A DNA stretch of 62,136 bases from a virus. Its lineage: Duplodnaviria > Caudoviricetes. Below the pieces are notes generated by a model. The model saw only the letters and a list, made by a program, of their open reading frames with translations. It had not been told where the DNA came from and made no database searches. This document shows positions 24,074 to 62,136 of the stretch, piece by piece. The position numbers were made by a program, and so were the translations under genes. How positions within the stretch are numbered: the stretch's first letter is position 1; every line of letters starts with the position of its first letter. The stretch is taken from positions 1 through 62,136 of the IMG/VR virus record IMGVR_UViG_3300036985_002914; one strand, 5' to 3'.

Positions 24074-24315
24074 TGCTAAGAGCTAACGGCTACGATGACG
24101 CAATTATTGGTTCTGCTTTCATTTGGCAAGACGGCACGCAAGTGCAAGTGCTTGTCTACGACGCAGAAGATATATGAGATATCTTGATGTCGCAGGATAA
24201 TATGACTACCGAAGAAGCCCGCGATTTTATTGAGTTTAATCTAGAGGGCGTTTACTTAGGCCCCGAGACACCTATCTTTGTATGGCCAGAGGATCAGTAT
24301 GAAATCGGGGATTAG
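24073..24315 (+). pseudogene. Small phage gene interrupted by in-frame TGA at 24175-24177
   Basis: MLRANGYDDAIIG...LVYDAEDI*DILMSQDNMTTEEARDFIEFNLEGVYLGPETPIFVW; reads as one coherent protein on both sides of the stop. Confidence 0.7.
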
Positions 24316-25999
24316 GCGACCTGCCGGTCCTAAGAGAATCCAGCCGCTTAAACAGATAGCTGGGATCGGCAAACGCGTTGCCCCGAAGAGGGCAGTCACA
24401 AAGCTTCCTGTTCTCAAGCCAGTGGTCAAGAAGGTGCCGGTGAAGTCACGCCTGACGCACTTTGAGCATGCAGAGGATCACCTGATCAATGCAGGCTTTG
24501 AAGGCTATACGTATGCAGTAACTGTACTAAAGGCAGTGCATGCCACCATGACGGGAGAGCCTTCCGCTATCATTACCGAGAAGTACGACGGTAGCCCCAG
24601 CATTGTCTTTGGCATTTTCCCAGCTACAGGTAAGTTCTTTGTAGCTACAAAGTCCTTCTTCAACAAGGTACCCAAGATCAATTACACGCACGAAGATATT
24701 GTGCGTAACCATGGCTATTCAGAAGAGCTTGTGACCAAGCTGGGTAAGGCCCTAGAGCATCTGCCTAAGATCACCCCAGAGCAGGGCATCTTCCAAGGCG
24801 ATTTGATGCACATAGCTGGGATGAATATTGAAGAGACTGAGGATCAGGTACGCTTCAATGCCAATACCATTACCTATTCCATCTCCTCGCGCTCTGAAGA
24901 AGGTAAGCGCCTGCTTGCTTCGCAACTAAGCATTGCCATACACACTGAGCATACTAACGGAGCGCGCTACGCGGACCACTTCCCTACTCTCCTGACACAC
25001 CCAGATGTCTGTGTCATCAGCGTTAAGGTAGACCTAGCCAAGATTTACTACCCTGCAGAAGCGCAGACTGCTTTTAAATGGTACATGGACCGCGCAGCGG
25101 ACTTAATGCACACCATCCCTACTGCTTACCCACAGGCGGAGAAGATAAAGAAGTACATCAATCGGAAGATCAAGGAGCGCTCTTCGCCGTCCGCGGAAGA
25201 CTTCTCTGACTTAGATCAGATGTTCCACATCCACGACTACCTGCAAAAGGCCAAGGATGCATTGAACTATGCCCTGTCCTTTACCCGTAGATTTGATACT
25301 TCTATTGATGGTGTAGCTACAAAAGGCGAGGGATTCGTCGCTGTTCTTTACAATAATCCTACAAAACTTGTCAATCGGGCTGAATTTAGTTTACAAAACT
25401 TCTTACGCCAGAAGGTCAAAGATGCTGCTGCGGATAAGGCTTACCTGAAACCTATTGTTATGGCCGTAGCGCGGATGAATCCTCCTACCATCGGCCATAA
25501 GCGGTTAGTGGATAAGGTCAAGCAGATAGCGGATGCCTGCTCCTCAAAACACATTATCTTTCTCAGCAACAGCCACGATGGTATGCGCAATCCGTTATCC
25601 CCTGAGTCAAGACTAGCGCATGTCCAGCGCTTATTCCCTGACACTAACTTCAGGATAGCGGGGAAGGATTTCCCGGGCTTCTTATCCCACGCCACCTCTG
25701 CCTACAGAGAAGGTGCAGAGTATTTAATATTGGTCGCTGGATCAGATAGGGCGGAGAACTATGAAGAGATGATGGACCAGTACAACGGTCCACTTGGCCC
25801 TTTCAATTTCAAGAAGATTGCCGTTATCTCCGCCGGAGATAGGCGCGAAGGGGATGGCATAGAGGGAATGTCTGCTACGCGCATGCGGTGGTATGCAGAG
25901 ATGGGTAATTACTCTGCATTTTTAGCTGGGCTACCTCCGACAACCGAGGACCATGCCCGCCAGATTTATGACGAGGTACGCAAAGGATTGGGGCTATGA
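24299..25999 (+). CDS. Fusion of ATP-dependent ligase-fold (DUF6267-like) domain and HIGH-family nucleotidyltransferase (cytidylyltransferase-like)
   Basis: EKYDG, FQGD, EGFV, KLVNR in the N-half; RMNPPTIGH, VAGSDR, MSATRMR in the C-half; ATG 24299 after GAGGA. Confidence 0.7.
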   Translation: MKSGIRRPAGPKRIQPLKQIAGIGKRVAPKRAVTKLPVLKPVVKKVPVKSRLTHFEHAEDHLINAGFEGYTYAVTVLKAVHATMTGEPSAIITEKYDGSPSIVFGIFPATGKFFVATKSFFNKVPKINYTHEDIVRNHGYSEELVTKLGKALEHLPKITPEQGIFQGDLMHIAGMNIEETEDQVRFNANTITYSISSRSEEGKRLLASQLSIAIHTEHTNGARYADHFPTLLTHPDVCVISVKVDLAKIYYPAEAQTAFKWYMDRAADLMHTIPTAYPQAEKIKKYINRKIKERSSPSAEDFSDLDQMFHIHDYLQKAKDALNYALSFTRRFDTSIDGVATKGEGFVAVLYNNPTKLVNRAEFSLQNFLRQKVKDAAADKAYLKPIVMAVARMNPPTIGHKRLVDKVKQIADACSSKHIIFLSNSHDGMRNPLSPESRLAHVQRLFPDTNFRIAGKDFPGFLSHATSAYREGAEYLILVAGSDRAENYEEMMDQYNGPLGPFNFKKIAVISAGDRREGDGIEGMSATRMRWYAEMGNYSAFLAGLPPTTEDHARQIYDEVRKGLGL

Positions 26000-34764: not shown

Positions 34765-34983
34765 AAGTTACTCCAATGTGGCTGTAATGTGTAGACTGTG
34801 ATCATTGATTTTTCTCGCTTTCGTCGTCGTTAGTTGGTCTTGTTTGCTTATGTGTATAGCGAAATACCTGTGAAACAGTTAAAGGATAGGGTGCCGCAAG
34901 GAAAAAGTCAAGAAATGAGGGGAGGGTCGGCTTATACAGAAAAGTTATAGAAAGCTGAGATGTTATGCAAAATAGGGGTTTTG

Positions 34984-39790: not shown

Positions 39791-40207
39791 ATGAGACCTT
39801 CAACATTAGCAGCAACCCTTCGCGTTAGCTTGTTCGCGGATCGCGGATCGGATATCACTGCAGCATGGCAGTTTGCAGATGACATGCTGACAGGCATGCC
39901 GGACGCTGGATCACGTGCGGCGGCGCGCACCGCACTGCACGTTCTAGTCAATACGATTGCAAACGCGATCAATGATCTTGAACCGGCGACCATTGCCCCC
40001 GCTGACCAGCCTGATGTCGGAATCGATGAATCGCGCATCGCGCATATGGTTGACGTGCACATGGCGCGCTGGCTGGAGGATAACTTCGACATCGATCATT
40101 TGGCGCAAGAGGCGATCGGACAAGTGATCGACGATATCGACATGGAAGATATGATCGGCGACGCAATCAAAAACATGAATTTTAAAGTTGACATCCGAGC
40201 GGACTAA
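39791..40207 (+). CDS. Early protein with acidic C-terminus
   Basis: Follows conserved leader; Asp-rich tail. Confidence 0.7.
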   Translation: MRPSTLAATLRVSLFADRGSDITAAWQFADDMLTGMPDAGSRAAARTALHVLVNTIANAINDLEPATIAPADQPDVGIDESRIAHMVDVHMARWLEDNFDIDHLAQEAIGQVIDDIDMEDMIGDAIKNMNFKVDIRAD

Positions 40208-40266
40208 TAGTATTATTTCTCCATGGCATCAACCGATGCCATGGAAACTTATAGAGGATAGAGAAA
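40188..40266 (+). promoter_or_regulatory. Early leader module 5
   Basis: TTGACA-17-TATTAT; tccatggcatc/gatgccatgga stem; motif at 40253-40264. Confidence 0.8.
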
Positions 40267-40557
40267 ATGACAACAAACACTAAGCCAGTCCGCACCGTCA
40301 CCCTAGGCTGGGAAGAATACATCCTGCCAGCATCGATGACCGACAAGCAAATCATTGAGCTGGTCGGCACACTGGCACTGCTGGACAAGGTGACCAGCAA
40401 GGGTACTAAGGATTACAAGGTCAGTCATTACTACGTCAGCAACAAGCAAAACGTGATGATCCAGACGCGCAACGTGCATACCAGCGAGGCTGCAGCAACT
40501 GCGGCCTGCGATGCATACAACGCAGCGCTTGTTACTGACGAAGCTGTCACAGCATAG
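40267..40557 (+). CDS. Small early protein
   Basis: Follows conserved leader. Confidence 0.7.
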   Translation: MTTNTKPVRTVTLGWEEYILPASMTDKQIIELVGTLALLDKVTSKGTKDYKVSHYYVSNKQNVMIQTRNVHTSEAAATAACDAYNAALVTDEAVTA

Positions 40558-40571
40558 TCAAGACAATTATT

Positions 40572-40597
40572 CCTATCGGGTCGCATGACCCGATAGG
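40572..40597 (+). terminator. 11-bp hairpin after last early gene
   Basis: cctatcgggtc-gcat-gacccgatagg; no U-tract. Confidence 0.4.
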
Positions 40598-40613
40598 CGC
40601 CGACTATGCTCAC

Positions 40614-40629
40614 TGTTTCACGTGAAACA
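40614..40629. promoter_or_regulatory. parS: parS site (perfect consensus)
   Basis: TGTTTCACGTGAAACA, intergenic. Confidence 0.85.
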
Positions 40630-40817
40630 GTCAGGCAATAGCTGAGACCTATCAGAGGGGGGAGGGCCATAGCTGGCCCCTATGGAAAAAAAACGTGCTA
40701 CGCTCTATTTAACACGAACAGAAACCATCCTAGAAGATGGACCCCCTCCCCCTCCCTGCCCCATAAACACCCCCTATCATTTGTAAAATGCACACAGGGG
40801 GTATATATTATTAAATT

Positions 40818-42278
40818 ATGAAACCTGAAGAACTTGAATCCGAACGCCTGCGCCTCGAGCTGCGCCTCTCGCTCCTCGAAGCGCGAGACAAGGCCACCTC
40901 TTCTTTCCTAGATTTCTGCCGATACGTCTGGCCAGAAATGCTGGTAGGCGAGCACCACAAGATCATAGCCGCGGCCCTCGATCGTGTAGTCGCGGGCAAA
41001 TGCAAACGCTTGATGATCGCGATGCCCCCGCGCCACGGTAAGTCACAGATGGGCAGTTATTTATTTCCTGCCTACCTGATGGGCAAGTTATCACAAAGCA
41101 AACTCATTGTCGGTTCGCACACCGCGGAACTCGCACAGCGCTTCGGCCGGATGATTAGAAATCTTGTTGAGGATGACAAGTACGGCGAGTTATTTCCTGA
41201 CACGAAGTTATCTGCTGACTCAAAGGCTGCGGGCCGTTGGAATACCAGCGCGGGCGGCGAAGCGTTCTTCATTGGTAAGGGCGGTGCAATGACGGGCCGC
41301 GGCGGGGATATCATTATTCTTGACGATATCTTGGACGAGCAGGATGCTATTTCTGACACAGCGATGGAGAACACGTGGGAGTGGTACACCTCCGGTCCGC
41401 GGCAGCGATTGCAGCCTAACGGTGCGATCATTATTATTAATACAAGATGGAAGATGGATGATCTGTCTGGACGGTTGTTGCGTCAGCAGGGTCAGTTAAA
41501 GACGGACCAGTGGGAGTTACTGGAGTTCCCGGCCATCCTACCTTCTGGCAATCCGTTGTGGCCAGAGTATTGGGTGATAGAGGAGCTAGAAAAAGTCAAG
41601 ATGTCCATTGGCTTGAAGAAGTGGAATGCCCAGTGGCAGCAGCAGCCGACTAATGACGACGGGGCGATATTGAAGCGGGATTGGTGGCGGCGCTGGAAGT
41701 ACGATGATCCTCCGGCTTGCGAGTATGTAATTCAGACTTACGATACGGCGTACAGTAAAAAGGAGACGGCCGACTTCTCTGTCATCGCGACGTGGGGCGT
41801 GTTCCATCCTTCTGCTGACTCTGGCCCTAATTTGATTCTGTTGTCGGTCAAGAAGGGGCGTTGGGACTTTCCTGAATTGAAGCGTATTGCCAAGGATGAG
41901 TATAAGTATTGGGAGCCGGACAATGTCTTGATTGAGGCGAAGGCCACAGGTACGCCGTTACAGCATGAGCTACGGAAGATGGGTATACCGGTGACGATGT
42001 ACAGCCCCGGTGGGCGGAGAACGGGGCAGGATAAGGTAAGCCGGGCTAACGCGGTGGCTCCTTTGTTGGAATCTGGCATGGTGTGGTATCCAGAGCAGGA
42101 GGAGTTTGCGCAGGAATTGGTGGAGGAGTGTGCAGCTTTTCCGAATGGGGCGCATGATGACCAAGTGGATGCCACGATTATGGCGTTAATGCGCTTTAGG
42201 CAAGGTAATTTTATTTCCTTGGACGACGATGACGACGAAGAGCGGGACGTGGACCAGAGGGTGGTTGAGTATTATTAG
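40818..42278 (+). CDS. terL: Terminase large subunit
   Basis: PPRHGKS Walker A, IIILDD Walker B, YDTA...DFS and FPNGAHDDQVD nuclease motifs. Confidence 0.95.
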   Translation: MKPEELESERLRLELRLSLLEARDKATSSFLDFCRYVWPEMLVGEHHKIIAAALDRVVAGKCKRLMIAMPPRHGKSQMGSYLFPAYLMGKLSQSKLIVGSHTAELAQRFGRMIRNLVEDDKYGELFPDTKLSADSKAAGRWNTSAGGEAFFIGKGGAMTGRGGDIIILDDILDEQDAISDTAMENTWEWYTSGPRQRLQPNGAIIIINTRWKMDDLSGRLLRQQGQLKTDQWELLEFPAILPSGNPLWPEYWVIEELEKVKMSIGLKKWNAQWQQQPTNDDGAILKRDWWRRWKYDDPPACEYVIQTYDTAYSKKETADFSVIATWGVFHPSADSGPNLILLSVKKGRWDFPELKRIAKDEYKYWEPDNVLIEAKATGTPLQHELRKMGIPVTMYSPGGRRTGQDKVSRANAVAPLLESGMVWYPEQEEFAQELVEECAAFPNGAHDDQVDATIMALMRFRQGNFISLDDDDDEERDVDQRVVEYY

Positions 42279-42324
42279 ATAAAATGGTAGCGTAGCGACA
42301 ATTCCCCCTTTTGCGCGACCTACT

Positions 42325-45300
42325 ATGGCCACCACTCCTGACGATATTCTTATTAACGCAGTGATGCAGGCCGAGAGCCGCGGTAAGCGGTTCGATAAGG
42401 CCGGTAAGTTACTCACTTCTGTTAAGGGTGCGGAGGGTGAAATGCAGGTCATGCCCACCACGCAGACCAAGCCGGGCTTTGGTGTCACTCCGGCGCAAGA
42501 TAGCAGTGCGGAGGAGAAGGCGCGGGTAGGTCGGGACTACTTGAAGGCCATGATAAGTAAGTATGGCGATACGACGACTGCCTTGGCTGCGTACAATTGG
42601 GGGCCGGGCAAGGTTAATAAGTGGTTAGAGAAGGGTGGCGACTTTAATAAGTTGCCCGAAGAGACGAAGAAATACATCAAGACCATTCAGGCGAGTTTGC
42701 CTAAGGGTTCGCAGTTAGCTTCTGCCCCACCGGTCAAGGTCAAACCTCCTGTTAAAGCGTCTACCAACAGGGTAGCTCCAGCCGCACCGGCAAAACCTCC
42801 TGTATCTATTACCAAAGAGATGGTGGCGGACTTGGGTCCTAACTATCAGGCGGCGTTGGCTGCAATGGCGTTGGGCGATACGCGGGAAGATGACGACGAT
42901 GAGGAGTCTATTGCCGAGCGGTACGCTGCAAAGCAGGAGAAGTTAGCGGAAGAGGCGGCATCTGTCCCCCCGCCGCGGATCGCGGGCATGGAAATGACGT
43001 ATCAGTCACCGTTCCCCGAGGAGCAGATAGCACAGGCACCGGAAGGTTTAGCGCATGGTGGCGTGCCGCGAAGAGGTAACTCTGCCCGCGATGCATTGCG
43101 TATGTTAAAAGAAGCCCAGCAGCAGCAGCAGCCGGTCCAACGTGCCGAAGGCTCTCCTGAAGAAGGCGAGAAAGCAGCAGCTACTGCCCGTGATTTATAC
43201 GCACAGATTAAACGCAGCGGTGAGTCTATTGACGAGGGTGGGTTGAAGTATTGGACGGAGCGTGCGCAGAGTAATCAGCAGTCTCCTGAAGAATTGCAAA
43301 AAGCCTTCATGGCGGCGGCAGATGTTGCTGACGATCCGTACTACGAAGTCAACCGGATGTATCAGCGCATAAATCAAACGCCGGATACCGAAGGCTTTAA
43401 TTACTGGGTCAACCGCGCACAGCAGGAAAAGCTCACACCACAACAGCTAGGGTCGCAATTCATTGGCGGTATGCCTGCTATTACGCAAGCGGAAAATCGT
43501 CCGGGCTTCGGTGTAGGTGGTCAGTACGGTACCTACAATGGCTTGCCGATGCTGTACGCGCCGGAAGTAGATCGGGTCATGGACCGCGAACAGCGGGTAA
43601 CGGGCGATTTAGTCAATGCTGACAACGCTATTGGTTGGGACCCTGCTTCTATGTCAGGCGAGTTGTCCCGTGGTGCGGCAGCAGCAGGCGTGTACCGCGC
43701 ACCTTTGGGTGGTGGGATACAAGGTGGGAGTCAGTTTGCAGGCGATTTGCTGGGAACGGCAAAGCAGTATGGCTTGGACCCTGAACAGTACATGAAAACC
43801 AGCACTGGCCAGTATGGCCAACAGACTAGTGCGTTGGATGAGAATGCTTTGTACGGTGCGCTGGATGAGAAGATGAAGGATTACTATGCGGTGCAGGGTT
43901 ATGTTCCCCCTGCCGGTACAGCCAATTCTGCCTTCAATCGACCTGACATTGGTGGCGATCATGCGCGGGTAATGTATCAGCGCGTGGGCGATAGGTTGGT
44001 GCCGATGGAAAACACCTTGCAGTATTCTAATATGCAGCGTGCGCCGAAGTATAGCTGGACGGATTACATTGCTCCAGCCGCTATTGTTGCCGCCCCATGG
44101 GCACTGCCTTATATGTCTACCATAGCTTCCGCAGTAAATTGGGGGCCGATTGGTGCAGAGGTAGGTAAAGGCGCGTTGATCGGTGCGGGTAAGAGCATCA
44201 TTCAAGGTCAGAACCCCATTACTGGCGCAATACAAGGAGGGGCAAGCGGTCTTATCCCTTCCCCATTCGCTAAAGGTGGGGAGGCGGTCAACGAATACGC
44301 CCCGGATATTCCACAAGAAAGAGAACCATCCTTTGGTACAAGGGCAGGGGGATGGCTGTCAGATAAGATTGTAGAAGGCGGGATGAAGTTATATTCCGCT
44401 ACTTCGGATAACGAGAACCTTCCTGCCTCCCATCGCATTTTCTTGGATACTTTCAATAAAGATCAGCGCGGCCCGATTACCGCCAAGGACTTTAATGCAA
44501 AGGAATTAGCGGAACTGCAGAATATTATTGCGTTAAATGAAAAAGCAAAAAACGGTAAGGGCGTAGGTTCTATTGCCTATGCGGATTACAACACGTTGCC
44601 TGACACAGAGAAGAGAACAGTAGAGGGCGATATCCTTAAAGGTAAGGGATCGGCTAGATCTTCTTTGTCTAATTCATTGGGCCAGTTCAATTACCGCTTG
44701 AACCCCAAGACCCAGCAGTATGAAATTATTGATGAGTATGATTTCAATCCTATACAGGCAAAGGTGGCGGGAAAAATGCGTGATGTTCCGCCTGCCTTGT
44801 ATGGCGACTACATAACGCACTCCTTGTCCCCTGAAAAAGGATTGCGCGATCTCGCTCGTATGTACGGTGGGCGGCACATGCCCCCGGGTAAAGGTAGGCC
44901 GATACAACTTTCTGTTCCCGTCAAACGTGCAGGCGGTTCTCCTGAAGAAGGGGAGTACTATCAAGATCCAATGGGTATGGACACCGGCCCGGTGACCGCG
45001 GACACCGTCAAGGCAATGACTCTGCCCCAAGGCTTGAGCGCCAAGGAAGCGATGGGCGCATTAAAGGGTATTGCCAAAGAAGGTGTGTCTAATGCGGAGT
45101 CTTTAGGTAGAGGTTCTGCTGCATCGTTTCCCGGAATGGTAGGGGATGTGGAATCTGTTTTCCGTGACGAGAAGAAGCGTAAGTTTAAAACCACGGATGA
45201 GATATTAAAGACGGAAATGCCAAAACGCATGACCACACCTACTAAGGAAGCGGCAGGCTTTGAAGAAGTGGGAACTTATATTGATCCTACTACTGGACTT

Positions 45301-45990
45301 CCTTTTGCTAAAGGTGCGGCAAAGGCGGCATTGGCTGGATTAAAATCTTCTGGCCCACAGGTGGAAAAGGCCTTGATGAAAATGGCCCCGGGAGCAGAGC
45401 CTTCGTATATCATACCGAGGGAAGCAAGTGCAGGCGCAACGCTGAAGAATGTAGATAGCTTGGTTAACGATTATAAGATTGGCGTGGACAACATCCTTCC
45501 TGCATATGCCCCGAACCGCGGACCGCTATTGAGTATGCTGGATAAGAAAGCCTCTGATTACTTCTACAATGTTTATGGGTCGAAGAACGATCCGATCCGC
45601 CAAGCTATTTTGGATGGAAAACTTCCTGCGTATCTGCTTAAAGATATCAAGGAATATGCAAAAGATCCTACTGTATTAAACGCTGCGCGTAAGGGCGATA
45701 AGAAAGCCTTGACTAAATTTGATGCGATCTATGATCAGCTAACCGGATTGACTAAGGCAGGAGAAAGAGCCGGTCAACCAGTTTATGATCTGTATGGTTC
45801 AACCGCTTCTCGTTTACCTTTCTTTAGCCGTAATGTATTAATAGAATCGTTGTCCACCATTCCTTTTAATCGCTTAGATAAAATGACTTTCCCAGAAGCG
45901 GTGATAGAGGGAACGAATAACTACGTCAAAAAAATATACGGCACAGAGAAGAAGAATCTTACCTTCATGCCAGAAACCAGTTTGAAATAA
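42325..45990 (+). CDS. Large virion protein with N-terminal lytic transglycosylase (SLT) domain and DUF4214-like repeats
   Basis: AESRG, GAEGEMQVMP, ALAAYNWGPG; EGGLKYW and PDTEGFNYW. Confidence 0.8.
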   Translation: MATTPDDILINAVMQAESRGKRFDKAGKLLTSVKGAEGEMQVMPTTQTKPGFGVTPAQDSSAEEKARVGRDYLKAMISKYGDTTTALAAYNWGPGKVNKWLEKGGDFNKLPEETKKYIKTIQASLPKGSQLASAPPVKVKPPVKASTNRVAPAAPAKPPVSITKEMVADLGPNYQAALAAMALGDTREDDDDEESIAERYAAKQEKLAEEAASVPPPRIAGMEMTYQSPFPEEQIAQAPEGLAHGGVPRRGNSARDALRMLKEAQQQQQPVQRAEGSPEEGEKAAATARDLYAQIKRSGESIDEGGLKYWTERAQSNQQSPEELQKAFMAAADVADDPYYEVNRMYQRINQTPDTEGFNYWVNRAQQEKLTPQQLGSQFIGGMPAITQAENRPGFGVGGQYGTYNGLPMLYAPEVDRVMDREQRVTGDLVNADNAIGWDPASMSGELSRGAAAAGVYRAPLGGGIQGGSQFAGDLLGTAKQYGLDPEQYMKTSTGQYGQQTSALDENALYGALDEKMKDYYAVQGYVPPAGTANSAFNRPDIGGDHARVMYQRVGDRLVPMENTLQYSNMQRAPKYSWTDYIAPAAIVAAPWALPYMSTIASAVNWGPIGAEVGKGALIGAGKSIIQGQNPITGAIQGGASGLIPSPFAKGGEAVNEYAPDIPQEREPSFGTRAGGWLSDKIVEGGMKLYSATSDNENLPASHRIFLDTFNKDQRGPITAKDFNAKELAELQNIIALNEKAKNGKGVGSIAYADYNTLPDTEKRTVEGDILKGKGSARSSLSNSLGQFNYRLNPKTQQYEIIDEYDFNPIQAKVAGKMRDVPPALYGDYITHSLSPEKGLRDLARMYGGRHMPPGKGRPIQLSVPVKRAGGSPEEGEYYQDPMGMDTGPVTADTVKAMTLPQGLSAKEAMGALKGIAKEGVSNAESLGRGSAASFPGMVGDVESVFRDEKKRKFKTTDEILKTEMPKRMTTPTKEAAGFEEVGTYIDPTTGLPFAKGAAKAALAGLKSSGPQVEKALMKMAPGAEPSYIIPREASAGATLKNVDSLVNDYKIGVDNILPAYAPNRGPLLSMLDKKASDYFYNVYGSKNDPIRQAILDGKLPAYLLKDIKEYAKDPTVLNAARKGDKKALTKFDAIYDQLTGLTKAGERAGQPVYDLYGSTASRLPFFSRNVLIESLSTIPFNRLDKMTFPEAVIEGTNNYVKKIYGTEKKNLTFMPETSLK

Positions 45991-45999
45991 GGACACGCC

Positions 46000-48369
46000 A
46001 TGCCAGTAGAAAAACTAAACAGCCTACCTAACGGCTTGAACGTCGATGTCGAAATTGAGCAAGAAGACTTGCCTGATATCGAGATTGAATTTGACGAAGA
46101 AGGTGGCGTTACCGTCAATCTGGACAAAGAAGAAGATGACGTAGAGTTTGACGCAAACCTTGCCGAAGTTCTTCCTGAAGACGTGCGGACCGCGATCTCC
46201 GACGACTTGATGCTGCTGTTTGAAGCAGATAAAGCTTCGCGCGATCAGTGGGAGCAACAGTACAGCAAAGGTATGGATCTACTGGGCTTGTCATTCGAGG
46301 AGCGCACTAAGCCGTTCCGCGGAGCGAGCGGCGTGTACCACCCTATGCTAACCGAGGCTATCGTTCAGTTCCAAGCACAGGCGTTGAAAGAAATGATGCC
46401 AGCCGGCGGCCCTGTTAAGACACAAGTCTTGGGCAAAGAGACGCGTGAGCGTTTGATGCAGGCGCAGCGCGTCAAAGAATTCATGAACTACCAGATCACC
46501 ACAAAAATGCCGGAGTACACACCGGACTTTGACCAGATGCTGTTCTATATTGGTTACGGCGGTTCGGCGTTTAAGAAGATTTACTACGACCACGACAAGA
46601 GTCGCATGGTCAGCGAGATGATCCCCGCGGATAACTTATACATCCCGTACTACGGATCCTCCGTCATGAGCAAGTGCGAGCGGATCACGTACCGCGTGCC
46701 GATGTCCATGAATTCCTACAAAAAAGCCGTGGTCCGCGGTCAGTACTTAGATTTAGCGGAAGGTTCTCTTGACGCAGCATCCACGCAGATTGAAGAAGCG
46801 ATTGACAAAGCTACGGGCTTATCGCCCAACGGTGAGGAAGAAGAAATCTATCTGCTGGAATTTCAGGTGGATTATGACTTACCGGGCTTCGAGGACATGG
46901 ATGAGGATGACCAGCCTACTGGCATCAAGCTGCCTTATGTCATTACCGTTGACGAGACAAGCCAAAAGGTTGTGGGTGTTCGCCGCAATTGGGAAGAGAA
47001 AAGCGAAGAGAAAGAGCGTAAAGAGTACTACGTACATTACCTCTTGGTTCAAGGCCCGGGGGCCTATGGCCTTGGCTTCTTGCATTTGATTGGTGGCTTG
47101 ACTAAGACGGCTAGTGCAGCGTTGCGTCAGTTGACCGATGCCGGTACGTTGGCGAATCTGCCAGCGGGCTTTAAGGCTAAAGGTGCGCGGATCGAGAATG
47201 ATGACGTGCCTATCGCGCCGGGAGAGTGGCGAGATATGGATGCGGGCGGTATGGACTTGACGCAGTCTCTGTTGCCACTGCCATACAAAGAGCCAAGCCA
47301 GACCTTGTTCTCCTTGCTGGGCTTCTGTGTAGAGGCTGGACGGCGTTTAGCGTCCATCACTGATCTGCAGGTAGGTGATAGCAATCAGAACGCTGCTGTG
47401 GGTACGACAATCGCGCTGCTGGAGAAGGGTTCCAGCGTCATGTCGGCCATCCATAAGCGCTTGCATTACAGCCAGAAGCTGGAGTTTCAATTACTGGCAG
47501 AAGGCTTTGCTAGGTATTTACCGCCTGACTATCCATACGATGTGCCGGGGGAGAGCCGCTCGATCAAGGCAAAAGACTTCGATGACCGCATTGATGTCTT
47601 GCCAGTATCCGATCCAAACATCTTCTCTGTAGCCCAGCGCATTACGTTGGCGCAGACACAGTTGCAGTTAGCGCAGAGCGCGCCACAGATGCATAACATG
47701 TACGAAGCTTATCGTCGCATGTATGAGGCTATTGGTGTGCGGGACGTGGACGCTATCTTGAATTCGCAGGATGTGGACAAGCCGAAAGATCCGTTGAGCG
47801 AGAACTCCCAAGCGTTGGATGGCTCACCACTGAAAGCGTATGCAGGCCAACAGCATGACTCGCATATCATGTCGCACTTGATGTTTGCGATGTCGCCTAT
47901 TGTTGGAACGATGCCTAACGTGGTGGTCAATATCCAGAAACATATCTTCGAGCATGTGACGTTAAAGGCGGAAGAGTTTGTAGAAGCAGAATTGTTCCGT
48001 CAATACGGCACTGACCCTGAAGGAATGGTGTCTGCACTGCAGCGCGAGGCGATGATTTCCTTAAAGGCAACAGAATTCTACAAGCAAGCTAAAGATATGG
48101 CGGATCAATTGTCTGGTGCAGGCAAGGAACAGCCCGATCCTCTGATTGAATTGAAGAAGCAGGAGTTAGCGCAGGTCGCGCAGCGCGATCAGCAGCGTGC
48201 GCAGGGTGAGCAGCAACGATTGGCCTTTGATCAAAAGCGTGAAAACAACGATATGCAGATTGATCAACAGCGTTTGCAGCAGCAAGACCAGATCGCCACG
48301 GAGCGTAATGCCGTAACCTTGGCTAAGATGAATCAATCCGGAGGACAAAATGCGCCAAGGACCCAGTAA
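46000..48369 (+). CDS. Portal protein
   Basis: 789 aa; HPMLTEAIVQFQAQA and LRQLTDAGTLAN; between terminase and head genes. Confidence 0.85.
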   Translation: MPVEKLNSLPNGLNVDVEIEQEDLPDIEIEFDEEGGVTVNLDKEEDDVEFDANLAEVLPEDVRTAISDDLMLLFEADKASRDQWEQQYSKGMDLLGLSFEERTKPFRGASGVYHPMLTEAIVQFQAQALKEMMPAGGPVKTQVLGKETRERLMQAQRVKEFMNYQITTKMPEYTPDFDQMLFYIGYGGSAFKKIYYDHDKSRMVSEMIPADNLYIPYYGSSVMSKCERITYRVPMSMNSYKKAVVRGQYLDLAEGSLDAASTQIEEAIDKATGLSPNGEEEEIYLLEFQVDYDLPGFEDMDEDDQPTGIKLPYVITVDETSQKVVGVRRNWEEKSEEKERKEYYVHYLLVQGPGAYGLGFLHLIGGLTKTASAALRQLTDAGTLANLPAGFKAKGARIENDDVPIAPGEWRDMDAGGMDLTQSLLPLPYKEPSQTLFSLLGFCVEAGRRLASITDLQVGDSNQNAAVGTTIALLEKGSSVMSAIHKRLHYSQKLEFQLLAEGFARYLPPDYPYDVPGESRSIKAKDFDDRIDVLPVSDPNIFSVAQRITLAQTQLQLAQSAPQMHNMYEAYRRMYEAIGVRDVDAILNSQDVDKPKDPLSENSQALDGSPLKAYAGQQHDSHIMSHLMFAMSPIVGTMPNVVVNIQKHIFEHVTLKAEEFVEAELFRQYGTDPEGMVSALQREAMISLKATEFYKQAKDMADQLSGAGKEQPDPLIELKKQELAQVAQRDQQRAQGEQQRLAFDQKRENNDMQIDQQRLQQQDQIATERNAVTLAKMNQSGGQNAPRTQ

Positions 48370-48493
48370 GATGAAAAAATCACCTAAACCAATCGTTAAA
48401 AAGGTTAAAACTGTTCCACGTGAAACAATTTCTGACCCTCGTCCGACCTACGTTTACCGGAAGGACGCGTTTAAAAAGGTAAAAATTACCTAA
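48350..48493 (+). CDS. Small basic protein, 47 aa, containing parS
   Basis: Not in ORF track; SD GGAGG; MRQGPSKMKKSPKPIVKKVKTVPRET...KKVKIT. Confidence 0.6.
   Translation: MRQGPSKMKKSPKPIVKKVKTVPRETISDPRPTYVYRKDAFKKVKIT
48412..48427. promoter_or_regulatory. parS: parS site
   Basis: TGTTCCACGTGAAACA. Confidence 0.8.
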
Positions 48494-48566
48494 ATGAGTA
48501 ATTTATACATGTGACCATGTATAAAAGTAGTGTTTTTATATAAATATTTGTGCATAATATGCACGT

Positions 48567-48596
48567 AGCCTTCAGATAGGGCTCAAAAACTGTCTG
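48567..48596 (+). promoter_or_regulatory. Candidate H-type pseudoknot in the head-operon leader
   Basis: agcct/gggct and cagata/tgtctg stems with A-rich loop, just before SD GGAG. Confidence 0.45.
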
Positions 48597-48612
48597 CTTC
48601 TTGGAGAACTCC

Positions 48613-48798
48613 ATGCTTGGATTTACTGAACGCGTGTTGGCAGAGGTACGTAAACTTCGGAGGAACTCCGAGGATCTCGTTATCAATGGATCAATACGTG
48701 ATATGGAGCAGTATCGGTTTTTGATGGGTCGTATTGAGGGTTACAAATTCGTGGAAGTGGCTATTGCAGAACTTCTGAAGAAAAACCCTGAAGATTAA
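48613..48798 (+). CDS. Small protein upstream of groES
   Basis: SD GGAG; DMEQYRFLMGRIEG. Confidence 0.7.
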   Translation: MLGFTERVLAEVRKLRRNSEDLVINGSIRDMEQYRFLMGRIEGYKFVEVAIAELLKKNPED

Positions 48799-48808
48799 GG
48801 ACCCATCT

Positions 48809-49261
48809 ATGACAATGACAGCGCTCGAAGAAAAATGGGCACAAGATGCGGCTGAAAAGGAGCCTACACTTGACGATGCCTACGCCGATGACGGCAGTCT
48901 TACTGTTGAAAACATCGACCAATCCGTTCTGGACCGAATCCCGAAGCCAACAGGCTGGCGGGTTGTCATTCTCCCCTACAAAGGCACGGCAAAAACAAAA
49001 GGCGGCATTATTCTTGCCGACCAGACCCGTGAACGCCAGCAAATAACGACAGTTTGTGGCTACGTATTGGCTGTGGGCGATTTAGCCTACCGCGATACCA
49101 CCAAGTTCCCTGACGGAGCGTGGTGCAAGCAAGGGGATTGGGTAATTTTTGGCCGGTATGCGGGTGCGCGTATCGGTTTGGACGAAGGGGAGATCAGGAT
49201 TCTCAATGATGATGAGATTCTTGCTCGTATCAACAATCCAGAAGACATTCTGCACATGTAA
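48809..49261 (+). CDS. groES: GroES-like co-chaperonin
   Basis: PTGWRVVI, KTKGGIIL, VLAVG, GDWVIFGRYAG, ILNDDEILA. Confidence 0.9.
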   Translation: MTMTALEEKWAQDAAEKEPTLDDAYADDGSLTVENIDQSVLDRIPKPTGWRVVILPYKGTAKTKGGIILADQTRERQQITTVCGYVLAVGDLAYRDTTKFPDGAWCKQGDWVIFGRYAGARIGLDEGEIRILNDDEILARINNPEDILHM

Positions 49262-52228: not shown

Positions 52229-52240
52229 TGGGGCGTTAAA

Positions 52241-52268
52241 AAAGGGGGCTTCGGCCCCCTTTTCTTTT
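52241..52268 (+). terminator. Intrinsic terminator after MCP
   Basis: gggggc-ttcg-gccccc followed by T-tract. Confidence 0.9.
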
Positions 52269-61790: not shown

Positions 61791-62136
61791 ATGGCAATCA
61801 TAATTGATGGCACAAACACCCCGACACTAGGCGGCGTAGGCTACGGAGATGGGTCTGAGCTTGCATTCACAGGTGCGGGGACTAGCGGGCAGGTATTGAC
61901 TTCGGCTGGTGGCGCTGCGCCTACGTGGGCTACCCCAACGCAGACATTTTCACTAATTTCTACAGCTACAGCAAGTGCTAGTTCAGTAATAGATTTTATA
62001 TTTTCTGGAAGTTATACTAATTATCAAATTATTGCTGCTAATGTTGTATCAAGCGTTTCTAATACAATATTACAATGCCAATTTTCTACAGACAATGGTG
62101 TTAGTTTTGATTCTACAGCGGGAAATTATCATTGGG
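61791..62136 (+). CDS. 5' part of tail fibre/adhesin-like protein continuing to 459
   Basis: MAIIIDGTNTP...GTSGQVLTSAGGAAPTW; open through window end. Confidence 0.8.
   Translation, partial: MAIIIDGTNTPTLGGVGYGDGSELAFTGAGTSGQVLTSAGGAAPTWATPTQTFSLISTATASASSVIDFIFSGSYTNYQIIAANVVSSVSNTILQCQFSTDNGVSFDSTAGNYHW

Follow-up and report, generated by a model that had tools for sequence, protein, structure and literature searches.

The window, by which we mean the whole 62,136-nucleotide stretch of DNA analysed here, comes from an HTVC023P/DSL-LC04-like phage lineage (62 kb, family A DNA polymerase, virulent-type podophage). The locus of interest contains the following features.

40558..40817, no strand assigned: hairpin-rich intergenic region that holds site 1, defined from the sequence and a promoter/terminator scan
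40614-40629, no strand assigned: parS site 1, TGTTTCACGTGAAACA, a perfect palindrome that matches the chromosomal parS consensus at 16 of 16 positions
40818..42278, plus strand: terL, large terminase subunit (Pfam, PHROGs), the anchor gene for finding relatives
42325..45990, plus strand: 1221-aa virion protein with an N-terminal SLT transglycosylase domain (Pfam, PHROGs)
46000..48369, plus strand: portal protein (phrog_1216)
48350..48493, plus strand: small conserved lysine-rich ORF of 47 aa after the portal gene, whose variable N-terminal part hosts site 2 (TVPRET)
48412-48427, no strand assigned: parS site 2, TGTTCCACGTGAAACA, a 16 of 16 match to the N-consensus and the variant seen four times in phi29

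The initial annotation had reported two parS 16-mers, one intergenic before terL and one within a 47-aa ORF in which it encodes VPRET, and both the sites and their placements are borne out. Site 1 is the core of the longest palindrome in the window (20 bp, 40612-40631) and lies inside a 260-bp gap that separates ORF 40267-40557 from terL (40818-42278), some 190 bp ahead of the terL start. Site 2 is found about 40 bp past the portal stop codon, within ORF 48350-48493, where it is read T-V-P-R-E-T. Together the two sites bracket a 7.8-kb block composed of terL, the SLT gene, and the portal gene. Both match TGTTNCACGTGAAACA over 16 bp with two inverted half-sites, as is characteristic of chromosomal-type parS. 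The window has 4 strand matches to parS with at most two mismatches, where 100 dinucleotide shuffles average 0.17 and none of them reaches 4, and a control pattern (parS read backwards) had no match in the window. There is no general excess of palindromes of 16 bp or more in the window (3 found, where simulations average 1.2 and reach at most 5), and the unusual feature is therefore the parS match rather than palindromy. The parS half-site seen at 34868-34879 is no more than chance would produce. Ahead of terL there is a weak promoter-like site (TTGTAA-17-TATATT, 40781-40809); promoter-like matches in the scanned region number 21 for 19.4 expected, and neither the promoter nor the terminator scan rises above chance. 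Judged by its C-terminal motif YVYRKDAF.KV.I, which recurs in 46 of the 48 relatives covering the place, the 47-aa ORF is a real, conserved gene, and it matches no Pfam or PHROG family.

No ParA, ParB, or integrase was detected with Pfam (78 ORFs) or PHROGs (75 ORFs), and six-frame searches for ParB_N, HTH_ParB, AAA_31, and Phage_integrase returned nothing at E values up to 10. The claim that the phage has no parA/parB or integrase thus holds, and the HMM search of all ORFs for ParB and ParA that had been suggested yields no match. With no ParB_N, HTH_ParB, or AAA_31 domain on the replicon, the sites are orphans, separate from any cognate parA/parB. The sole repressor-like match in the window, PF07022, scores 21.0 bits, under the Pfam cut-off of 22. 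Other host-type signals are not enriched: LexA-type CTGT-N8-ACAG is found 0 times, DnaA boxes 17 times for 12.9 expected, and CtrA-type TTAA-N7-TTAA once for 1.35 expected. A search for tRNA genes, sought as a clue to the host, found none.

A megablast of positions 40000-49000 against the phage collection gave no match, and relatives were instead reached via the TerL protein. We compared 81 related sequences, as loci that span only 10 kb either side of terL, together with a quickly built TerL tree with SH-aLRT support. The scan of related phages for parS enrichment that had been proposed is strongly positive, with 62 sites at most one mismatch from TGTTYCACGTGRAACA over 1.12 Mb, where 20 simulations average 0.05, although such raw counts overstate the number of independent events because the relatives share ancestry. 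The reversed motif has 0 matches in the same 1.12 Mb. Good parS sites occur in 46 of the 81 related sequences, and five of the five complete relatives searched carry one or two. The number of sites per relative ranges from 0 to 3 and their place changes between clades, nearly all of them falling in an interval that opens 2.1 kb upstream of terL and closes shortly after the portal gene. The places are not homologous and have unrelated flanks; they include at least three alignment columns of the SLT-protein linker, the small ORF after the portal gene, and three upstream intergenic places. These different places and unrelated flanks suggest that sites were gained repeatedly within the lineage. 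The low-complexity linker after the SLT domain has one to three sites in many relatives and none in the window's copy. At the place of site 1 (U-204) the window is alone among the 81 sequences in having a site exactly there, and at the place homologous to site 2 (P+46) the site is kept in L004, L009, L011, L020, L021, and L023, with variants in L015 and L017. The clustering around terL and portal is a feature that partition would not require, and it sits awkwardly with a purely partition-related role.

Absence of the sites from close relatives had been named in advance as grounds for rejecting a role for them, and in part such absences are indeed seen. No site is found in 15 of the 48 relatives that cover the main positions, in the complete relative DSL-LC04, in 023Pt_psg01, or in four of five partial relatives, and HTVC023P has only a doubtful match with two mismatches. 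The absences from the 15 well-covered relatives and DSL-LC04 indicate that the sites are dispensable for the lineage. None of the 34 window ORFs within 10 kb of terL follows the presence of sites across 12 site-bearing and 9 site-less loci, a weak test given that several of the site-less ones have little downstream coverage. DSL-LC04 is predicted to be virulent (PMC10611076, Table 1); given this and the sub-threshold PF07022 match, there is no clear sign of dormancy, an observation that runs against a partition reading. The cultured relatives infect Pelagibacter, and mis-binned contigs of relatives fall into five bins from five different Gram-negative groups (Burkholderiaceae, Rhodoferax, Verrucomicrobia, Armatimonadetes, and Crocinitomicaceae), which do not point to one host.

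Several lines of evidence indicate that the sites are under selection at the level of the DNA. Coding copies of the site are always read V-S/P-R-E/G-T. In the SLT gene of relatives the homologous site exists in 18 distinct versions, with 0 synonymous changes in the five codons, and most codon columns in the flanks use two to four synonymous codons. The sole variable base in this site is position 5 (Ser to Pro), which is the N of the parS consensus. The lack of synonymous change, the free flanks, and the restriction of variation to the consensus N argue that selection acts on the DNA and not on the protein. The mismatch spectrum is all-or-nothing, with 60, 2, 3, 8, and 144 sites at 0, 1, 2, 3, and 4 mismatches. 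The variation tolerated in phage sites (T or C at position 5, A or G at position 12) is that of bacterial genomes; 21 of 60 sites are asymmetric (C5 with A12, or T5 with G12), and the central ACGT never varies. Intergenic copies sit within longer palindromes.

On balance we favor the hypothesis that the 16-mers are functional orphan parS, that is, binding sites for host chromosomal ParB that have been selected in a virulent-type podophage without partition genes. Exact parS copies on a genome devoid of partition genes suggest that host ParB is borrowed, and this phage and many of its relatives probably do so, as phi29 is known to do. From the sequence of the sites we infer that ParB would bind them. 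The initial annotation had likewise proposed that the phage uses parS through host ParB as it lacks ParA and ParB; recurrence across the family, selection on the DNA, and the phi29 precedent speak for this proposal, and the sites missing from 15 of 48 relatives speak against it. After injection, host ParB dimers would load at the phage sites as CTP-dependent clamps, giving rise to a partition complex on the phage DNA, and the host ParA/ParB machinery would then handle the phage genome like a chromosome origin. The phage genome could thereby be positioned and passed to daughter cells when lysis is delayed, for instance in slowly growing or starved cells or in a carrier state.

The evidence that points to ParB binding would serve equally well if the sites were decoys. 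Multiplying phage parS would draw ParB away from the host origin and upset segregation, ParA/DnaA control, or division-site placement, leaving the cell as one large factory. Such a role would suit a virulent phage that encodes replication genes of its own and lacks an integrase and a clear repressor, and the sites found are of the perfect, high-affinity kind, weak ones being absent. We nevertheless regard it as unlikely, given that a genome holds only one to three sites where more would profit a decoy, and that phi29, the one studied precedent, employs its sites for segregation.

The position of the sites raises another possibility, namely that host ParB spreads across the block of terL, SLT, and portal genes, where it would dampen late expression or packaging, or set its timing, until replication dilutes ParB. 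The sites at 40614 and 48412 bracket this block, those of relatives keep nearly to the same interval, and phi29 too has a site after its packaging ATPase gene and another at the end of its connector gene. Furthermore, a TerL domain was found in 13 of 31 unrelated parS-bearing contigs, and in 8 of these 13 the site lies no more than 16% of the contig away, a weak trend from a small number of contigs, many of them fragments (p of about 0.03, rough binomial). The clustering in relatives is, however, partly built in, since no locus extends beyond 10 kb on either side of terL, and in one complete relative a second site is some 34 kb away from that gene. Low-complexity linkers, the lysine-rich small ORF, and intergenic stretches may also simply be places where a fixed 16-mer is tolerated. 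We consider such local regulation improbable.

We are similarly doubtful that ParB is not involved at all and that the palindrome instead serves as target for a protein of the phage or a different one of the host, or forms a cruciform or RNA hairpin, with its likeness to parS due to convergence. The many small phage ORFs without a known family and the longer palindromes around intergenic copies leave room for this. Yet the sites match parS at 16 of 16 positions and tolerate the same variation, at positions 5 and 12, as those of bacterial genomes. The 21 asymmetric sites would break a hairpin pair, and the ACGT centre, which would be the hairpin loop, is invariant. Moreover, no ParB-like HTH is encoded, and among the ORFs within 10 kb of terL none tracks the sites. 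A phage pac or replication-origin site is very improbable despite the proximity to terL, as an essential site is expected once, in one place, and in every member, and what is observed is 0 to 3 sites whose place shifts between clades and which 15 of 48 well-covered relatives and the complete DSL-LC04 lack. The single fixed place that would mark a pac or cos site is likewise not seen. Chance, or a recent scrap of host DNA, can be set aside, for although the window itself has only a small number of sites, 0 of 100 shuffles reach its count, the relatives hold 62 sites for 0.05 expected, and the flanks are phage coding sequence that differs between copies with only the 16-mer constant.

Returning to orphan parS as putative host-ParB sites, we find that the motif extends beyond this lineage. 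In IMG/VR a perfect parS occurs in at least 137 stretches, against 2, 8, and 35 for three control palindromes of the same composition, which suggests that the device may be widespread. Eight of the at least 137 stretches listed are from this lineage; among the matches listed, 27 of 31 large parS-bearing contigs lack a ParB domain, and genes for polymerase, portal, protease, primase, and tail fibre carry the site in the VSRET frame. It is conceivable, and we propose it tentatively, that orphan host-type parS has evolved repeatedly and is a widespread device among virulent phages of numerous unrelated lineages and habitats, as opposed to an oddity of phi29 sporulation. If this is true, hitch-hiking on or jamming host ParABS would be a general route by which non-integrating phages persist through divisions, and pseudolysogeny would gain a molecular basis. 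The use of host Spo0J by phi29 has so far been treated as a special trick tied to sporulation; the same 16-mer is maintained by strict selection on the DNA in a pelagiphage-related lineage that is abundant in freshwater, and it occurs in many other uncultured phages as well, which suggests that non-integrating phages commonly borrow the centromere system of their hosts. The site offers a mutable 16-bp handle on the persistence and inheritance of phage genomes in slow-growing or starved aquatic bacteria, including the carrier state and pseudolysogeny. Because it would be useful only where the host has ParABS, parS may also help to predict hosts, and parS matches in metagenomic contigs are not always markers of a chromosome origin.

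Centromere-like sites on a phage genome recall the plasmid-prophages P1 (parABS) and N15 (sopABC) and actinobacteriophage parABS, which have their own ParA, ParB, and site sequences; in N15 the centromere sites are dispersed over the phage genes. The present phage differs in that it encodes neither a ParA ATPase nor a ParB adaptor, and its sites do not form a partition cassette of this type. Chromosomal parS, with consensus TGTTTCACGTGAAACA, is present near the origin in 1 to about 20 copies per genome (PMC10197239). In Rhodoferax-family genomes, which serve only as an example of a parS-bearing candidate host group, 35 of 41 carry the same two variants as one to four sites clustered within a few kb. 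The phage sites share the identical sequence and the same tolerated variants, but bacterial sites cluster near parAB and the origin on the replicon that encodes ParB, whereas those of the phage are orphans. The density is also about 60 times higher, at 2 per 62 kb compared with about 0.5 per Mb in Rhodoferax-family genomes. Virulent phages are described as co-opting sites for host transcription factors, as in "lytic deferment" via CtrA boxes and in the Spo0A boxes of phi29 (PMC9437464). In these phages too a short site for a host protein lets a virulent phage read or use the host cell-cycle system, although ParB is a segregation clamp and not a transcription factor, and CtrA-type boxes are not enriched here.

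The closest parallel is phi29 itself. We found no report in the literature of host-type parS in phages beyond the phi29 family, and the terms "parS" and "ParB" occur 0 times in the HTVC023P paper. The earlier treatment of the case as unprecedented does not survive, since five parS sites for host Spo0J, involved in movement of the genome into the prespore, have been described in phi29 (Meijer et al. 2005 as cited in PMC2731898). The phi29 record holds TGTTCCACGTGAAACA four times, along with one site with three mismatches. Its sites either lie within genes, where they read NVSRGT or DVPRET, or come immediately after a gene, as does one behind the packaging ATPase gene; another is found where the connector gene ends. 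Both phages are virulent podophages that lack parA/parB and carry several copies of host chromosomal parS, site 2 being the identical 16-mer, and in both, as in relatives of the window, exact host-type 16-mers lie in genes or gene ends in the same frame, V-S/P-R-E/G-T. They differ in that phi29 is a 19-kb, protein-primed phage of an unrelated lineage, whereas the present phage has 62 kb, a family A DNA polymerase, and an origin in freshwater metagenomes. Given this different setting (lineage, freshwater, and relatives that infect Pelagibacter), spore entrapment of the phi29 type is unlikely here. Host parS on a phage is thus not a new kind of element, as phi29 provides the precedent.

The phage carries two parS-type sites that recur among its relatives, are constrained as DNA and come without a phage-encoded partner. 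Both 16-mers lie where the initial annotation had placed them, and they bracket the block of terL, SLT-domain and portal genes as follows.

40614-40629: site 1, a perfect palindrome, intergenic, about 190 bp upstream of terL
40818-42278 (+): terL, large terminase gene
42325-45990 (+): gene of the virion protein with the SLT domain
46000-48369 (+): portal gene
48412-48427: site 2, within a 47-aa ORF, about 40 bp past the portal stop codon, read as TVPRET

Site 1 forms the core of the longest palindrome of the window (20 bp), and there is no excess of long palindromes as a class in the window. The earlier contention that the pair is not due to chance holds, since the observed count was reached in none of 100 dinucleotide shuffles; a control motif read backwards has no match in the window. 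The lysine-rich 47-aa ORF (48350-48493) overlaps the portal stop codon, finds no known family in Pfam or PHROGs, and keeps its C-terminus, YVYRKDAF.KV.I, strictly in 46 of 48 relatives. A parS half-site, CTGTGAAACAGT, is present at 34868-34879 in a divergent early intergenic region, with about two such 8-mer half-sites expected by chance; its 10-mer GTGAAACAGT also spans the right arm of site 1 and the adjoining flank.

A TerL relative is encoded on 236 IMG/VR contigs, the best 80 of which (80-91% identity) were compared with the window, taking in as much as 10 kb of flanking sequence per side. Of the resulting 81 sequences, 46 contain one or more good sites. Across the 1.12 Mb, 62 sites lie within one mismatch of TGTTYCACGTGRAACA, against a mean of 0.05 in 20 first-order simulations, and the reversed motif has no match. 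The mismatch spectrum is all-or-nothing, with 60, 2, 3, 8 and 144 sites at zero, one, two, three and four mismatches, respectively. Each of the five complete relatives examined (about 61 kb) contains one or two sites, and four of five partial ones lack them. Not every relative has a site: of the 48 sequences spanning both main positions, 15 are without one. In a quick TerL tree, site types track clades, and clades without sites are scattered between them. Among related phages, HTVC027P has one site (15/16, intergenic, near the small terminase gene), HTVC023P a single doubtful match with two mismatches, and DSL-LC04 and 023Pt_psg01 no site.

The sites are found at several non-homologous places; their flanks differ and the 16-mer alone is constant. 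Only the clade to which the window belongs has sites in the small ORF past the portal gene. The low-complexity linker that follows the SLT domain holds sites at three or more alignment columns, sometimes two or three per gene. Upstream intergenic sites fall about 30 bp, 204 bp (the window alone) or 1.8-2.1 kb before terL, often within longer GC-rich palindromes. Several relatives (L057, L061, L066, L069 and L072) have a symmetric variant, TGTTCCACGTGGAACA, as the second site of their SLT gene; this variant also makes up a clustered parS pair in a Verrucomicrobia MAG (G013, at C49:344 and C49:1142).

In-gene sites always share one frame, V-S/P-R-E/G-T, and the initial annotation had suggested looking there for constraint at synonymous positions. 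Comparison of the homologous site in the SLT gene across 18 distinct DNA versions gives a clear answer: the codons GTT, xCA, CGT, GAA and ACA never differ synonymously, and most flanking codon columns contain two to four synonymous codons. The sole variable base, position 5 (T/C), swaps Ser and Pro and is the degenerate position of the parS consensus. In one post-portal site position 12 has changed as well, which replaces Glu with Gly and restores perfect symmetry. This codon pattern is the opposite of that expected from protein-level selection and indicates that selection acts on the DNA.

The record represents a complete uncultured virus of 62,136 bp. An exact 127-bp terminal repeat (1-127 = 62010-62136) lies inside an ORF, so the ends reflect a circular or permuted assembly and not a mapped genome end. 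Pfam and PHROGs scans give the layout of a tailed phage, with a family A DNA polymerase, an AEP-type primase, UvrD- and SNF2-type helicases, Pam3 gp32-34-like proteins, a small-terminase-like protein and the large terminase, a virion protein of 1221 aa with the SLT domain at its N-terminus, and portal, GroES-like, capsid and SU10-type adaptor genes. No tRNA genes were found in the window. By TerL identity the nearest named phages are DSL-LC04 from a lake metagenome (63%) and the Pelagibacter phages HTVC027P (56%) and HTVC023P (52%). Between the primase and UvrD-type helicase genes, a 573-aa protein (24278-25999) combines DUF6267 with a cytidylyltransferase-like region at its C-terminus, and a strong terminator-like hairpin (52240-52263, 10 pairs and then a T-run) stands directly 3' of the capsid gene. 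That the phage has no parA, parB or integrase gene, as previously noted, is borne out: ParB_N, the ParB HTH, ParA-type ATPases and tyrosine integrases are absent from all six frames at E values up to 10, and likewise no ParB, ParA or integrase appears among 78 ORFs searched with Pfam and 75 with PHROGs. Additionally, none of the window's ORFs within 10 kb of terL is restricted to site-bearing relatives, which is a weak test.

Perfect parS sites extend beyond this lineage, and the figures that follow are samples among the matches listed and no census. At least 137 IMG/VR stretches contain one, compared with 2, 35 and 8 for three control palindromes of the same composition; this phage group accounts for 8 of the 137 among the matches listed. 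Of the parS-bearing contigs of at least 30 kb among those matches, 4 of 31 encode a ParB_N domain and 13 of 31 a TerL domain, to which the site weakly tends to be close. In the 30 cases among the matches listed in which a long ORF spans the site, the frame reads VSRET in 26 and FHVK in 4, and PHROGs matches for 26 such ORF fragments include DNA polymerase, primase, portal, head protease, tail fibre and replication initiator. The control found in 35 stretches, TCTTGTCATGACAAGA, is present in one 35-kb contig (L243, L244, L259 and L260) and some 30 others, mostly from one sample set and with six copies in one contig; it probably represents a functional repeat that belongs to a different group of phages. 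Phage-like contigs of 12-18 kb that encode a phrog_1907 DNA polymerase (L094/L095, L164-L166, L208-L210 and L156/L157) each contain three or four perfect parS sites, and several of these fall within the polymerase gene itself. Their nearest records are unannotated human-faecal 'Bacteriophage sp.' entries and phages of about 11 kb from Pectobacterium, Salmonella and Acinetobacter, and they look like a second lineage with a phi29-like device at even higher parS density.

The phage sites tolerate the variants that bacterial genomes also show. One mis-binned relative sits in a MAG whose family was surveyed: exact sites, one to four per genome and clustered within a few kb, occur in 35 of 41 genomes and use the window's two variants. 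The five MAG bins with relatives each represent a different group. Candidate hosts are freshwater Burkholderiales, for example Rhodoferax, Limnohabitans or Polynucleobacter, and, for HTVC027P, Pelagibacter HTCC1062. We propose that host ParB would load on the phage sites and that the loaded genome may then be treated like a chromosome origin. If so, the sites would be expected to be enriched in phages of ParABS-bearing hosts and not in those of Enterobacterales, which are not known to have a chromosomal ParABS system. By analogy with phi29, the sites would most likely serve to position the phage genome and to have it inherited while lysis is delayed. A decoy role, in which ParB is titrated and the host thereby disturbed, ranks second. 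Local control of the terL-SLT-portal block, ranked third, could be favored by the clustering of sites around terL; however, the relatives' loci extend just 10 kb to either side of terL, the places used are those able to tolerate a fixed 16-mer, and in one complete relative another site lies some 34 kb from terL. It is unlikely that the palindrome serves as a hairpin, given that 21 of 60 sites (about one third) are asymmetric and that the central ACGT is invariant. A role as packaging site is likewise unlikely, since the sites differ in number and position between members and are missing from some.

The positioning of phage DNA through host ParB would have a precedent in the phi29 family, the sole lead in the literature searched for host parS in phages. 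Passages in PMC2731898 and PMC9437464 state that phi29, which is virulent, has five parS sites for host Spo0J, and that Spo0J is involved in segregation of the phi29 genome into the prespore (PMC2731898, citing Meijer et al. 2005; PMC9437464). In the phi29 record we find four exact copies of the site 2 16-mer and one copy with three mismatches (0.88 strand matches expected). They fall at the end of the connector gene, in the endolysin gene, at the first base past the packaging ATPase stop codon and in gene 17, and those within genes read NVSRGT or DVPRET. Unlike those of phi29, the hosts of the window's lineage are probably not spore-formers. The two phages belong to unrelated lineages, but phi29 carries the same 16-mer, and the feature described here therefore belongs to an already known kind.
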